Below the pieces are notes generated by a model. The model searched no databases, had not been told where the DNA came from, and saw only the letters and a program-made list of their open reading frames with translations. From the NCBI GenBank assembly GCA_964374105.1, contig CAYJXI010000003.1:13336-77335 (forward strand): a stretch of 64,000 bases of DNA, in the 5' to 3' direction. A program made the position numbers and the translations under genes. Below are positions 55,937-63,890 of this stretch, piece by piece; within the stretch, counting starts at the first letter, position 1, and each line of letters begins with the position of its first letter. This DNA comes from an uncultured Planctomycetales bacterium. GTDB taxonomy: Bacteria; Omnitrophota; Gorgyraeia; Zapsychrales; JANLHA01.

Positions 55937-56344
55937 TTACTTTATCCCAGAGAACGCACTCCCTCCTGAACGGGTGACAGTCCCAGTTCCAATAATCAAC
56001 TGAATAAAACTTGCGGTGGAACCTCCATCAACAGTATTTCTTCCCGCCTGTAACGTGTAAGCATTAGCCGCAACGTTGACCCAAGCATAGGTAAAGTGAG
56101 CTCCTGGGGCTTGAGATGGATTAGTAAGGTCAATGTTAGCGAATGTATTGCAGTTAAGATAACTGGATGAGAATAAGTAGCAGCGTTCGACCGAAGAACG
56201 AAGAGCGGTCAGGGCAGAGAGCGCTTCTGAGCTTCTTGAGAATTCAATTGTACTAACCAAGCGCGGTAGGGCCAAACTAGCCAATACTCCAATAATGATG
56301 ACAACTATGATAATCTCAAGCAATGTAAAAGCGTTTTTTTGCAC
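55937..56344 (-). CDS. Type IV major pilin-like protein (paralog A), GTG start.
   Basis: The prepilin N-terminus (V/M)QKNAFTLLEIIIVVIIIGVLASLALPRL has F+1 and E+5 but Ala at -1. It is a 135-aa protein with two Cys and a Ser/Thr/Gly-rich C-terminal third. It is nearly identical at the N-terminus to the gene at 63471..63890. Confidence 0.8.
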   Translation of the reverse strand: MQKNAFTLLEIIIVVIIIGVLASLALPRLVSTIEFSRSSEALSALTALRSSVERCYLFSSSYLNCNTFANIDLTNPSQAPGAHFTYAWVNVAANAYTLQAGRNTVDGGSTASFIQLIIGTGTVTRSGGSAFSGIK

Positions 56345-56440
56345 TATCAGCCTCCTTTTGAATTTTCTATATAAAATTTGTTACTACTTGAGGTTCCACT
56401 GGAATTTTAAATCATTTTTTATTTTAGTTTAGAGGGGGGG

Positions 56441-56469
56441 ATTATACATGAGTGACAATGTATTGTCAA
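56441..56469 (-). promoter_or_regulatory. Consensus sigma70 promoter (TTGACA-N17-TATAAT) for the pilin gene, overlapped by a 16-bp perfect palindrome.
   Basis: On the minus strand TTGACA is 56469-56464, the spacer is 17 nt, and TATAAT is 56446-56441. The palindrome TGACAATGTATTGTCA (56453-56468) covers the -35 box and the spacer. Confidence 0.5.
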
Positions 56470-56584
56470 TATTTTCGAAAGGGTTGATTTGATGTAATTA
56501 TCTAAATGATAAGCAGTTATGAGACTTGGTTTATGAAATAGTTATCCTTTTTACTAAAAATAATTCACTCAGATATTATAAAGA

Positions 56585-58390
56585 TCAATTTTCACATTGG
56601 GAAAACAAGGCGCTGACTTCACTCTTAAGATCAGGTTGAGTTTGAATGATAACCGTATAAAATTCCTTGGCCTTCTCACAGTCACCTTTCTTTTGGTACA
56701 ATTGGGCCATGCGGTAATAGGCATCTAAACTTTCCGGTTGATATTTGAGCACTCCCGCAAAGGCTTTGAGGGCATCATCGGGTAAATTCATTTGTTCATA
56801 GGTAGCCCCTAGATTAAATAAGGCATCCACATTAAAATGGCAAATCTTCAAGGATCTTAAATAGAATTTCTCTGCATCTTTGAGGTTACCTTCCATCAGA
56901 TAGGCATTGCCCAGATTATACAGTGTATTGGTATCAAAAGGGAAAATGGCCAGGGCTTTGTGATATTGCTCCTGGGCTTTTTGAAATTGATGATGTTTGG
57001 CATAAATGGGCCCGGATTTTGCATAGAGGAGAAATTGATAGGTTTTAGCATCAATCGGTTCGGGGGAAAATAAAACTGAATAAATGAAAATCAATAAAGC
57101 AGATAAAAGGACAGAGAAGAACTTACGTTGAACCAATTGGTCGGTTATCCAAGTTAAAAAGTAGGCCTCAAAGATAATAAAAAAAGGAAGAACGGTGACT
57201 CTATGCCGGGCATTAAGAAAGAAAATCAAGGTAAAGAGTAATTGACTGAAGATAAGGAGGATCGGGACGAAGGATTTTTTTTGATGTCGATAAGAAAGCC
57301 ATATTCCACCTAAGGACAAGGGGCAAATGATATAAAAGGGATTAAAGTCAAACTTAAATCGCCAGTCTCGTTGTAAGATCATATCCAGTTCCTCTGCCTT
57401 CTCGATGTCTTTAAAAAATAGATAGAATTTTTTGATTAAGAGCTTAAAGTACAAAGCCGGGTTTTCCAGGATAAAGCGAAAGGCCTTTTGTTGCCAGAAA
57501 TGAGAGACCTGATGAGCGGTTAAGGATTTTTCCAACATCGCTTCCGCAATGATTTTTTGATCTTCATCTTGACCGCGATGATCGGGGCGTAAGAATTCTG
57601 GATGTTCATAAATTCCCGAGGCAAAAGGGTTATTCCCCGTGTAAAAGCTTAACCCACTTTGCGCACTGATAAGAACCCAATCCCCTCCCACCCATTTGTT
57701 GCGAAATACGACTAAAGTAAGAATTAAAAAGACGCCGAGACTCAAAGGTACTAAGAATTGATAAGCCTTCTTTAGGAGATTCTTTTTATCTTTCGTTAAG
57801 AGATATCCAGAAAAAAGAAGATAGAATAGCAAAAGTTTTCCGTCTCCTAGCATCCCAAGTCCTAAAAGAATACCTAAGATGAAGACTTCCTTAAAATTAC
57901 GGGGATACTCAACTAAAAAATGGAATAAAGATAGAATGATAACCAAATTTAAAAAGATCAATAAGGTGACCGGCATCATCAACCAATCATAAAAAATTAA
58001 AGAATAGTTGAGGGAGCTTAAGAGGGAGGCCAAAACAGCAACTTTGGTTGAGAAAATCTTTTTGCAAAGATAATAAATGAGTAAGCAATTCAAGGAACCG
58101 AGGGCAAGATGAATGAAACGTAGCATGAAAAGATTGCCTAAGGTCAGACGCTTCAGGATGGCCAAAAAGTAGGGATAAAGCGGAAGGCCCCAGAATGTAT
58201 CTTTCCCTAGCCAGTCACCTTGAGCAATGTCTTGGGCCCAGGTTTGATAATAGACAACGTCACTGCTGGGATGATCGAAAAAAAAGTAATTGTTTTTTAA
58301 AAATAATAGATAGCCGAGCCGAGACCCAAGGGCACAGACAAAGAGCAAGACCAGGATCAGAACTTCTTTTTTTTCTTTCCAGGGATTCAT
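56585..58390 (-). CDS. GT-C-fold membrane glycosyltransferase (ArnT/PMT/TfpW-like) with C-terminal TPR repeats.
   Basis: A 601-aa protein. About 11 TM helices are followed by an acidic motif (FFFDHPSSD) in the first loop. The C-terminal 150 aa form 3-4 TPR repeats (YNLGNAYLMEGNLKDAEKFY..., FNLGATYEQMN..., YYRMAQLYQKKGDCEKAKEFY). The gene overlaps rsmE by 4 nt and lies directly upstream of a major pilin gene. Confidence 0.6.
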   Translation of the reverse strand: MNPWKEKKEVLILVLLFVCALGSRLGYLLFLKNNYFFFDHPSSDVVYYQTWAQDIAQGDWLGKDTFWGLPLYPYFLAILKRLTLGNLFMLRFIHLALGSLNCLLIYYLCKKIFSTKVAVLASLLSSLNYSLIFYDWLMMPVTLLIFLNLVIILSLFHFLVEYPRNFKEVFILGILLGLGMLGDGKLLLFYLLFSGYLLTKDKKNLLKKAYQFLVPLSLGVFLILTLVVFRNKWVGGDWVLISAQSGLSFYTGNNPFASGIYEHPEFLRPDHRGQDEDQKIIAEAMLEKSLTAHQVSHFWQQKAFRFILENPALYFKLLIKKFYLFFKDIEKAEELDMILQRDWRFKFDFNPFYIICPLSLGGIWLSYRHQKKSFVPILLIFSQLLFTLIFFLNARHRVTVLPFFIIFEAYFLTWITDQLVQRKFFSVLLSALLIFIYSVLFSPEPIDAKTYQFLLYAKSGPIYAKHHQFQKAQEQYHKALAIFPFDTNTLYNLGNAYLMEGNLKDAEKFYLRSLKICHFNVDALFNLGATYEQMNLPDDALKAFAGVLKYQPESLDAYYRMAQLYQKKGDCEKAKEFYTVIIQTQPDLKSEVSALFSQCEN

Positions 58391-62798: not shown

Positions 62799-63221
62799 TT
62801 AAAATCCCAATTTAGAACATAATCCTGCCGGGCCTCCAGCACACTCTATATTCCCATCGACATCAATCGATAACGTATAGGAACCGTTTCTTGTGATTTG
62901 TGCTACATAAAAATCGGGGCCTGGGAGGCCATTTAAGGCAACCGGTGTATTAAATAAGCTCGAGGGCCGTACTTCCAAATCAAGATCAGTGATATCGATA
63001 GTAAAAGCCCCCGCATTATCCAAGGAATACCGCTTTTGCGCTCCAAACAGCGCAATGAGAATTTGTTTACCTTCTTCAGAACGAAATTTTTCTAACGTGG
63101 TCACAAAGCTCGGGATGGCAAGACCGACAATCACAGTTAAGATAATCATGGTAATGATCATCTCCATTAAGGTAAATCCCAAAGGTAGTAAAGTTAATTT
63201 TTTTTCAATTAATCGAGTCAT
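62799..63221 (-). CDS. Prepilin-type minor pilin / pseudopilin (140 aa).
   Basis: LPLGFTLMEMIITMIILTVIVGLAIP prepilin motif. The CAGGPAGLC C-terminus suggests a disulfide loop. Confidence 0.7.
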   Translation of the reverse strand: MTRLIEKKLTLLPLGFTLMEMIITMIILTVIVGLAIPSFVTTLEKFRSEEGKQILIALFGAQKRYSLDNAGAFTIDITDLDLEVRPSSLFNTPVALNGLPGPDFYVAQITRNGSYTLSIDVDGNIECAGGPAGLCSKLGF

Positions 63222-63301
63222 CTTACCCTCTTTATAAAATAGACCTCACTACGTTCGGCACTATTTTATCCATACCCCGCCATTGGCGCCGACCCCTTCC
63301 C

Positions 63302-63335
63302 TTAACCCCGCAGCTTTCGCAAGATGCGGGGTTAA
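63302..63335 (-). other. Perfect 11-bp-stem hairpin (TTAACCCCGCA-N12-TGCGGGGTTAA) between the major pilin gene and the minor pilin operon.
   Basis: Exact inverted repeat, GC-rich in an AT-rich spacer, with no U-tract on either strand. Confidence 0.4.
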
Positions 63336-63470
63336 CAACCCCTACGTTGTATCGGGATCCTTCATTTTGAATTTCCGATACAATAAAATATATGAAACAA
63401 CACCAAGGTCAATTTTCTCTCCCCCGATGTTGCTTCATATATGGACTTCAAGTCCTCTCTCTGTGTAAAC

Positions 63471-63890
63471 TTATTTGATTCCTGTAAAAGCTGTTGCACC
63501 TGAGCGAGTAACCGTCGCAGTTCCTATAATCAAATCAATCGTGCTTGCTGAATTTCCTCCATCCGTAGTATTTCTTGTCGCCCTTAAGGTATAAGCATTA
63601 GTCGCAACGTTAACCCAAGAATAAGTAAAATGAGCTCCTGGGGAATCCTTGGGATCGGAAAGGTCGATGTTGCCAAACGTATTGCAATTTGTATAAACTC
63701 CTTGCAGTAAGTAACAACGTTCTACCGAAGAACGCAAGGCAGTCATAGCCGAGAGACCTTCCGAGCTTCGTGAGAACTCCACGGTACTCACTAGGCGGGG
63801 TAAAGCCAAACTGGCTAGAACCCCAATAATGATCACCACAATTATAATTTCAAGCAGGGTAAAACCGCTTTTTTTCATTGTTAAATTCAT
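63471..63890 (-). CDS. Type IV major pilin-like protein (paralog B).
   Basis: MNLTMKKSGFTLLEIIIVVIIIGVLASLALPRLVSTVEFSRSSEGLSAMTALRSSVERCYL is nearly identical to paralog A over the first 55 residues and diverges toward the C-terminus. Its G-1 is canonical. RBS AGGAG. Confidence 0.8.
   Translation of the reverse strand: MNLTMKKSGFTLLEIIIVVIIIGVLASLALPRLVSTVEFSRSSEGLSAMTALRSSVERCYLLQGVYTNCNTFGNIDLSDPKDSPGAHFTYSWVNVATNAYTLRATRNTTDGGNSASTIDLIIGTATVTRSGATAFTGIK

Follow-up and report, generated by a model that had tools for sequence, protein, structure and literature searches.

In this study, the region at positions 55937-63890 of a 64-kb stretch of DNA (the window) from an uncultured Omnitrophota bacterium was identified as the 3'-terminal half of a pilus operon, probably type IVa-like, together with its conserved housekeeping neighbors. 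The last gene of the pilin unit encodes an HTTM protein, a homolog of the vitamin K carboxylases (VKGC) and of human GGCX. A pilus operon, a pilin duplication, riboswitch control and a neighboring GT-C/TPR gene are all of known kinds. For a VKGC homolog as the terminal gene of a pilin operon, no precedent was found in the searchable literature, nor was any report of an HTTM protein with a pilin or of a gamma-carboxylase with type IV pili. As an overall explanation of the region, we lean slightly toward the tail of a pil operon that carries a menaquinol-dependent, pilin-modifying HTTM enzyme as an accessory.

Linkage of HTTM to the pilin genes

The comparison loci (L0xx) are public contigs, and the loci of relatives were found via the HTTM and GT-C proteins. 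Eleven sequences were used for the HTTM locus scan and 25 homologs for the residue map. In five of the six contexts of its clade (the window, L004, L006, L007 and L036), HTTM lies directly 3' of the last minor pilin gene, minor pilin 4. The two genes overlap by 4 nt in L004 and are separated by 3 nt in L007, 19 nt in L036, 47 nt in L006 and 53 nt in the window. In the sixth context, L031, HTTM is located about 5 kb upstream of pilM. The unit of L036 consists of a riboswitch, five pilins and HTTM, and a spermine-synthase-like gene lies upstream in place of pilBC. In L004 (11544-21362), HTTM is followed on its 3' side by three tRNAs and then by UbiE/MenG, MenF, MenD, MenB and MenA, all above the NCBIfam cutoffs; in the other loci of the clade (L006 and L007), tRNA-rsmE-recA is found downstream. 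The menaquinone cluster of L004 is itself broken by a helicase and an NTase/HEPN pair.

An exhaustive search for HTTM homologs returned 3616 representatives (at 50% identity) with E<=1e-3, including 1151 with E<=1e-30. Homologs of 42% identity or less had no prepilin neighbors and no obvious conserved partner in the Bacteroidota and other distant loci compared (L012-L017, L020-L023, L032 and L037). An earlier note on this DNA, made from the sequence alone, had allowed that the HTTM and GT-C genes might be mere neighbors that also occur where pilins are absent. This holds for distant HTTM homologs, which do occur without pilins, but not for the close HTTM clade. One of the distant loci, L037 (330-5616), contains three tandem VKGC-like paralogs and three small, Cys-rich, N-terminally anchored paralogous proteins that are transcribed divergently; this set may be another enzyme-substrate or enzyme-partner system.

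The HTTM protein as a vitamin K carboxylase homolog

The description of the protein as vitamin-K-carboxylase-like in the earlier note proved correct, as it is a true GGCX homolog by Pfam, profile and fold. When searched against the PDB, the profile of the HTTM clade matched human GGCX with E=5e-67 over human residues ~54-505. The AlphaFold2 (AF2) model of the protein (pLDDT 89, pTM 0.89) matched sixteen GGCX cryo-EM structures in Foldseek with a TMq of up to 0.85 (most 0.82-0.85) at 23-28% identity, and no other PDB fold; at a TMq of 0.84-0.85 the identity is 27-28%. The list of active-site residues was taken from the GGCX structure paper. The catalytic base of the human enzyme, Lys218, corresponds to K177 in the window protein and is invariant in all 25 homologs. 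The quinone/isoprenyl pocket is also conserved (F286, N290, F294, F299, W223, V210 and G259 in human numbering): F243, N247 and F257 of the HTTM protein are invariant, and F251 and W182 are present in 24 of the 25 homologs.

Organization of the region

All the open reading frames claimed in the earlier note are present, and all are on the minus strand. The upstream part of the operon was read from L001, a public contig with an identical pilA1 that shares 616 nt with the end of the window (2 mismatches); "virtual" coordinates are the window numbering extended on L001. The features are listed below in the direction of transcription.

63891..64000, minus strand: 5' leader of pilA1, continuing beyond the window (L001 overlap)
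63471..63890, minus strand: pilA1, major type IV pilin at the conserved operon position, 139 aa, leader MNLTMKKSG|FTLLE (N_methyl and ComP_DUS)
63383..63442, minus strand: long hairpin and T tract directly 3' of pilA1 (RNAfold of the spacer)
62799..63221, minus strand: minor pilin 1, 140 aa, conserved C-terminal Cys pair (GFxxxE domain, 22.1 bits against a cutoff of 16.3)
62246..62710, minus strand: minor pilin 2, 154 aa, Ala at -1 of the leader (N_methyl; ortholog alignment)
61847..62227, minus strand: minor pilin 3, 126 aa, weakly PilV/GspI-like (N_methyl, E=2.2e-7; PilV and GspI both below cutoff)
61254..61838, minus strand: minor pilin 4, 194 aa, the last pilin gene (N_methyl, E=2.3e-7)
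59833..61200, minus strand: HTTM and VKGC_lumenal_dom protein, 455 aa, terminal gene of the pilin unit (Pfam, 2.4e-54 and 1.4e-39)
59404..59643, minus strand: hydrophobic open reading frame, 79 aa, of doubtful status (no family match in Pfam or NCBIfam)
59307..59380, minus strand: tRNA-Ala(CGC), boundary between the pilin/HTTM unit and the rsmE unit (ARAGORN and Rfam)
58387..59196, minus strand: rsmE, 16S rRNA U1498 N3-methyltransferase, 269 aa (NF008692, 206.7 bits against a cutoff of 196)
56585..58390, minus strand: GT-C (PMT_2) protein with C-terminal TPR, 601 aa (PMT_2, 42.9 bits against a cutoff of 26.1, and TPR matches)
56441..56469, minus strand: sigma-70 promoter TTGACA-17-TATAAT, 97 nt upstream of pilA2 (promoter scan, 12/12)
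55937..56344, minus strand: pilA2, extra major-pilin paralog, 135 aa, GTG start, leader MQKNA|FTLLE (78% identical to pilA1)

These genes would form three transcription units divided by the tRNA gene: riboswitch-terminator-pilA1-hairpin-four minor pilins-HTTM, then rsmE-GT-C/TPR, and pilA2. After pilA2 come recA, htrA, recX, alaS and his genes. The order pil operon, tRNA-Ala, rsmE, GT-C/TPR, recA, htrA, recX, alaS, his is repeated across Omnitrophota loci, and a tRNA occupies the equivalent place in L007, L033, L034 and L035. rsmE is a housekeeping gene outside the pilus system. Although the region had been described as an island, its base composition is ordinary (GC 0.38-0.44, like the flanks), no mobility genes flank it, and its tRNA-Ala, rsmE, GT-C and recA-his neighbors are syntenic across Omnitrophota. 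Patchy presence is limited to HTTM and pilA2; the tRNA and its neighbors are syntenic in relatives.

Directly past the HTTM stop codon lies a GC-rich stretch (59700-59832, minus strand) with several hairpins and no T-run, and the 79-aa open reading frame comes next. This small frame (59404-59643) is predicted as a 77-aa gene on Logan contigs, and in L006 and L007 there is no room for a counterpart. It was left out of the system because it is not conserved in relatives.

Pilus machinery upstream of the window

Family scans of the window confirmed that it contains no pilB/C/D/M-Q assembly gene; pilT and gsp assembly genes were not found in it either. The conclusion that the locus differs from a standard pil operon did not hold, as this absence is an effect of the window edge: on L001, pilC lies 467 nt upstream of pilA1. 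It is a 414-aa PilC/GspF gene at virtual 64357-65601 (Pfam T2SSF), and it scores 345 bits with the NCBIfam GspF model and 319 bits with the PilC model, both below the curated cutoffs. For this genome pilC was seen directly, and the other components of the operon were seen in relatives. The full order pilM(N)-pilO-x-secretin-ATPase-pilC-major pilin-four minor pilins is present in L004, L006, L007, L033 and L035. The proteins of these operons are a PilM_2 fusion of 511-527 aa, PilO, a small open reading frame, a secretin (STN, Secretin_N and Secretin), an ATPase (MshEN and T2SSE) and a T2SSF protein. The ATPase of L004 has an MshE-type motif for binding cyclic di-GMP (c-di-GMP; 66 bits against a cutoff of 38). 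No GspC, GspL, GspM or large, Glu5-less GspK was found in the operons of the relatives, and all four minor subunits are of 220 aa or less and have Glu5.

The class III leader motif (a short basic leader, G/A at -1, F/L at +1, Glu at +5 and a hydrophobic helix) was found in all six pilin-like open reading frames by Pfam and NCBIfam. Orthologs of minor pilin 1 occupy the equivalent position in seven genomes. Cys pairs are conserved in minor pilins 1 and 2 in all compared genomes, and in most major pilins. Ala is found at -1 in pilA2 and minor pilin 2 and recurs in their orthologs, with Ser in L034 (L004, L033, L034 and L036 compared). The sequences of these leaders suggest a prepilin peptidase of relaxed specificity in this lineage. 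The AF2 model of PilA1 (pLDDT 87.8) consists of a helix at 12-63 and four strands, that is, a long alpha1 on an antiparallel beta-sheet. Its best PDB fold is the PAK pilin (1oqw, TMq 0.60), and Neisseria meningitidis PilV and the PAO1 pilus were also matched. Gene order, the PilM and PilO families, the absence of GspC and GspK from the relatives' operons, Glu5 throughout and the modeled fold of PilA1 together favor a type IVa-like pilus over a type II secretion system (T2SS).

The two major pilins

pilA1 and pilA2 had been called near-identical. At the protein level they are 78% identical over 135 residues, and at the DNA level ~79%; the similarity ends at the ribosome-binding site. No difference is seen over mature residues 1-25; identity is 92% over residues 1-53 and 70% over residues 54-130. 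By the Nei-Gojobori method, the synonymous rate (dS) is ~1.6, which means that synonymous sites are saturated, and the nonsynonymous rate (dN) is 0.165; the dN/dS ratio is 0.11 for the whole gene and 0.20 for the globular C-terminal domain. Judged from these sequences, the pair arose by an old duplication, and purifying selection acts on both copies. Among the pilins compared, each is closest to the other (78%; 42-59% to those of other sampled loci and 45-49% to the orthologs of L004, L006 and L007); the duplication is therefore lineage-specific. A pilA2 between GT-C and recA was found only in this genome among the sampled loci, and L006, L007, L033, L034 and L035 have no counterpart at that position. 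The pilin family as a whole comprises at least 486 Omnitrophota homolog clusters.

The gradient from a conserved N-terminus to a divergent C-terminus, which the earlier note took as a sign of variation, is present. However, an equal gradient is seen between orthologs of different genomes: pilA1 and the pilins of L034 share 74% identity in the N-terminal part and 45-48% in the C-terminal part. The gradient is thus the generic pilin pattern. The proposed pilin-variation cassette, with antigenic variation, is contradicted by the genes themselves, as both are complete and have their own ribosome-binding sites and signals, dS is saturated, selection is purifying, and neither silent cassettes nor signs of gene conversion were seen. 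No promoterless partial pilin copies, recombination repeats or mobility genes were found near the region, and no upstream homology was found between pilA1 and pilA2. In L034 (1802-3140), two tandem major pilins share 98% identity in the N-terminal part and 87% in the C-terminal part, an independent duplication.

Regulation of the pilin genes

Between pilC and pilA1, at virtual 64099-64188 (L001 1470-1559), lies an aptamer of the c-di-GMP-I-GGC family (Rfam RF03167, clan CL00126; 61.8 bits against a gathering cutoff of 59, E=3.6e-13). A terminator hairpin and T-run follow on the 3' side of the aptamer at virtual ~64043-64080 (L001 ~1578-1615). c-di-GMP-I aptamers (RF01051, 52-62 bits against 35) are also present upstream of the major pilin in L007, L033 and L036. 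In L034, an RF01051 aptamer precedes only the second of the two tandem pilins, which parallels the split control of pilA1 and pilA2. An Rfam scan of window positions 54000-64000 returned the tRNA only, with no second riboswitch and no aptamer at pilA2. Within the 8 kb, only the promoter of pilA2 matches sigma-70 at 12/12, and the ribosome-binding site of this gene, AAGGAGG, was read directly from the sequence. With pilA1 behind a riboswitch in the operon and pilA2 under an autonomous promoter, the two paralogs are therefore wired differently. pilA2 is probably an alternative major subunit whose expression is independent of the second messenger.

The 249-nt spacer between pilA1 and minor pilin 1 is strongly structured (-90.5 kcal/mol in RNAfold). 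In this folding model, the hairpin at 63383-63442 likely acts as a terminator that attenuates transcription from pilA1 into the minor pilin genes, in line with the attenuation that is usual at such a junction.

The GT-C/TPR gene

The start of the GT-C/TPR gene overlaps the stop of rsmE by 4 nt. Its family has at least 190 Omnitrophota homologs of 40-55% identity, and Asp44 is invariant in the first periplasmic loop within the motif HPSSDVxYY. In all sampled contexts the gene is paired with rsmE, often with overlapping codons, and lies 3' of the tRNA that ends the pilin unit. The rsmE-GT-C pair is located downstream of the pilins in L033, L034 and L035. L035 (6001-10457) has one GT-C/TPR paralog on each side of rsmE, downstream of the pilins. 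A GT-C copy of L035 was considered as an occupant of the HTTM slot and rejected, as it sits after the tRNA and hence on the rsmE side.

TfpW, the GT-C arabinosyltransferase for the group IV pilin of Pseudomonas aeruginosa, has 11 transmembrane segments and a C-terminal periplasmic TPR domain. By analogy with it, the GT-C/TPR protein might O-glycosylate pilins; this we regard as doubtful, and the link is weaker than that of HTTM. The earlier note held that the embedded enzymes suggest post-translational modification. This stands insofar as HTTM is a real GGCX homolog beside pilins in five of six contexts and the GT-C/TPR protein has the architecture of TfpW, but the latter gene lies behind the tRNA and is coupled to rsmE.

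Other genes of the window

The rest of the window contains housekeeping genes, a polysaccharide cluster, two transposases and one PilZ open reading frame. In the polysaccharide cluster, 42 kb away from the pilin region, a decaprenyl-phosphate phosphoribosyltransferase (NF008977, 257 bits against a cutoff of 234) and a 656-aa DUF2079 membrane protein are encoded at 11536-14402 on the minus strand. With this phosphoribosyltransferase present, polyprenyl-phospho-pentose donors (arabinose or ribose) may therefore be available, as for the arabinosylation of P. aeruginosa pilin. The transposase genes at 2230-3015 (plus strand; rve integrase) and 8373-9293 (minus strand; DDE_Tnp_1) break up the polysaccharide/methyltransferase cluster at the left end of the window. 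The PilZ-domain open reading frame stands alone at 35851-36276 on the plus strand and is among the very few plus-strand genes in a window that is nearly all minus.

Discussion

The VKGC homolog at the end of this pilin operon may be understood as a modifying enzyme of the pilins encoded with it. In the mechanism that we propose, the level of a second messenger would gate transcription of the pilin set and the HTTM gene together. The HTTM enzyme would be located in the inner membrane with its lumenal domain facing the periplasm, and menaquinol would be bound in the conserved pocket beside the invariant catalytic Lys177. Oxygenation of the quinol would then drive a base-requiring modification, which may be carboxylation or a related reaction. 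Prepilins or pilins anchored in the membrane would be modified, with residues of helix alpha1-C that lie just beyond the membrane as the most plausible targets, and the transmembrane helix of the pilin would serve as a tether in place of the missing propeptide exosite. That the enzyme acts on the co-encoded pilins at the periplasmic face of the membrane, with the pilin helix as tether, is a serious possibility to which we give somewhat less than even weight. It is unlikely that the reaction is specifically the gamma-carboxylation of pilin Glu with menaquinol, O2 and CO2, for example at the invariant Glu29, Glu35 or Glu48 of alpha1-C. pilA2 would be an old, functional paralog that is expressed independently of the riboswitch and may provide a second filament subunit under other conditions.

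Several observations weigh against a pilin-modifying HTTM enzyme in the operon of a type IV pilus. The link between HTTM and pilins is one of gene context alone, and the six genomes behind it, all uncultured, are related to one another and lack phylogenetic independence. The HTTM clade is rare: 4 of the 1151 strong representatives are at least 47% identical, with a score gap below them. Several Omnitrophota pil loci are without HTTM, including L034, whose pilins are the closest to those of the window, and the pilus clearly does not need HTTM. Rare and absent from several pil loci, HTTM is thus a patchy accessory gene of the pilin unit. In the pilin alignment, no acidic or other column separates HTTM-plus from HTTM-minus genomes. 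The protein has 455 residues against 758 in the human enzyme; the alignment ends near human residue 505 (TMt 0.55-0.61), and most of the propeptide-binding and Arch region is missing. In human GGCX, the propeptide exosite involves PBD-1/PBD-2, residues 495-513, W501, G558 and T591, and the propeptide/Arch region is needed for activity. The Glu pocket of GGCX (N158, N159, H160, Y395 and R436) is not conserved either: in the clade, Y395 is replaced by C, A or S, R436 by Q or L, and N159 by D, and the position of H160 holds H, Y or C. N117 and H119 of this pocket are present in the window protein. Because the Glu pocket is divergent and the propeptide region is missing, the substrate may not be protein Glu. 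The residues are best read as retention of the strong-base chemistry of a quinol oxygenase with a different substrate recognition. Canonical GGCX chemistry needs O2, and no men gene was found in the 64-kb window. As for the second membrane enzyme, GT-C is coupled to rsmE and lies after the tRNA gene, outside the pilin unit. For the apparatus itself, the NCBIfam scores are near-ties, all below cutoff (PilB 620 against GspE 612; GspF 356 against PilC 317; PilQ 197 against GspD 187).

Other readings of the region have to be considered. HTTM might be a passenger at the end of the pilin operon, kept there by inherited gene order, with some other target for its quinone-dependent chemistry, such as a lipid, a small molecule or a secreted protein unrelated to the pilins. 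VKGC-like representatives number more than 1000, those of 42% identity or less are without pilin neighbors, the features for Glu and propeptide binding are unconserved, no pilin signature is specific to HTTM-plus genomes, and MloH, the known bacterial example, modifies a natural-product intermediate. However, HTTM and the pilins have stayed adjacent where both flanks of the pilin set are rearranged (L004 and L036), at only 45-54% protein identity, the open reading frames overlap or nearly touch, and no other candidate substrate gene is conserved beside HTTM; a passenger is a credible minority explanation, though a rather doubtful one. A role of HTTM in pilin folding, in which menaquinone redox like that of VKOR/DsbB would form the disulfides of the minor pilins, would agree with the Cys pairs that every genome conserves in minor pilins 1 and 2 and that most major pilins also have, with the conserved quinone pocket and with the fusion of HTTM to a DCC thiol-disulfide-oxidoreductase-like domain in other bacteria. 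This role seems very improbable, as equal Cys pairs are found in genomes that lack HTTM, no redox-active CxxC occurs among the invariant columns of the clade, and GGCX chemistry consumes quinol by oxygenation and not by thiol oxidation.

The remaining alternatives concern the locus as a whole. The earlier note had named T2SS pseudopilins as a competing identity for the pilin-like genes, and a platform gene indeed lies just outside the window, preceded in relatives by secretin and ATPase genes; the PilM/PilO partners and the PAK-pilin-like fold nevertheless favor a type IV pilus. For a T2SS-like pseudopilus machine, in which the pilins would be pseudopilins in the manner of GspG-K, one may cite the set of one major and four minor subunits, the GspF, GspE, GspD and GspG models that score about equal to those of PilC, PilB, PilQ and PilA, the 511-527-aa PilM_2 protein that could be a GspL-like fusion, and an operon without a retraction ATPase. 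Such a machine is improbable, given the order pilM(N)OPQ-B-C with the PilM_2 and PilO families and an STN-containing secretin, the lack of GspC and of a large or Glu5-less GspK-like subunit in these operons, and Glu5 in all five subunits. The PAK pilin, the PAO1 pilus and N. meningitidis PilV, moreover, are the top folds, GspG is not among the matches listed, and a c-di-GMP riboswitch and an MshE-type ATPase motif fit adhesive pili. The proposal of a self-contained cassette or island for pilin variation and modification, with the paralogs serving antigenic or receptor variation, drew on two major-pilin paralogs with a more divergent globular domain and on two membrane enzymes interspersed with pilin genes; the second, independent duplication in L034 could be added. 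Its probability is the lowest of all, as assembly genes (pilC on L001) are found just past the window edge, the block keeps its synteny throughout the phylum, and silent cassettes, recombination repeats and mobility genes were not found nearby. The paralogs, with saturated dS and a dN/dS of 0.11 overall and 0.20 in the C-terminal domain, are complete copies with separate signals. A pil operon tail with a pilin-modifying HTTM enzyme as accessory is thus the reading that we prefer.

Omnitrophota are largely uncultured and possibly host-dependent nanobacteria. The locus shows how type IV pili are organized and regulated in this group, in which attachment organelles are likely central. Bacterial VKGC homologs number in the thousands in metagenomes, and to our knowledge MloH is the only one with an assigned function. 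The Leptospira ortholog reportedly epoxidizes vitamin K without carboxylating Glu. A clade in which HTTM is fixed to five pilin genes, and in one relative lies beside the menaquinone pathway, offers candidate protein substrates that can be tested. If the link is true, a new chemistry would stand beside the glycosylation, phosphoforms and methylation of pilins, with a bearing on the evolution of gamma-carboxylation. Protein gamma-carboxylation is thought to be an animal invention. Should pilin carboxylation in particular be true, these would be the first bacterial proteins containing gamma-carboxyglutamate (Gla) and type IV pili that bind metal (Ca2+), a prokaryotic counterpart of protein gamma-carboxylation under c-di-GMP control. 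If the link is false, what is left is the tail of an ordinary pil operon beside housekeeping genes.

The features of the locus have counterparts in several known systems. As in Clostridioides difficile, where an aptamer of the c-di-GMP family is located in the leader of the major pilin gene (PMC6200980, PMC6366702), the aptamer in the major pilin leader would couple pilus production to the level of a second messenger. Unlike the case of C. difficile pilA1, the aptamer here is of class I (GGC variant) and is located in the pilC-pilA interval with a terminator behind it, and the host is a diderm. As with Neisseria pilE/pilS, pilin is encoded more than once, and the sequences agree at the N-terminus and vary at the C-terminus; in contrast to pilE/pilS, there are no promoterless partial cassettes in the region and no gene conversion was seen, and the copies are complete, anciently diverged and under purifying selection. 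The 601-aa GT-C/TPR protein, compared by architecture only, shares with TfpW the GT-C domain, an acidic residue in loop 1 and the C-terminal TPR, whereas its gene follows rsmE instead of pilA, comes after the tRNA and has pilA2 downstream of it.

The HTTM protein resembles human GGCX in its HTTM transmembrane domain and first lumenal domain, with the catalytic Lys and the quinone pocket; it differs in being ~300 residues shorter, in its unconserved Glu pocket and in being encoded in a bacterial pilin operon. That quinone-driven carboxylation works in bacteria is shown by MloH of malonomycin biosynthesis, which acts on an aspartyl residue of a polyketide-peptide intermediate (cited in bioRxiv 10.64898/2026.08.19.745780). 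MloH and the Leptospira ortholog are, like the HTTM protein, bacterial members of the VKGC superfamily with altered substrates; MloH, in contrast, belongs to a natural-product cluster and has a substrate of the small-molecule type, and neither enzyme is known to be tied to pilins. With respect to its position, HTTM resembles tfpO, tfpW and tfpX/Y/Z of P. aeruginosa, which are variable, lineage-specific membrane enzymes encoded 3' of pilin genes that modify pilins in the periplasm and, as pilin accessory genes, show a similarly patchy distribution. HTTM differs from them in belonging to another enzyme class than any known pilin accessory protein.

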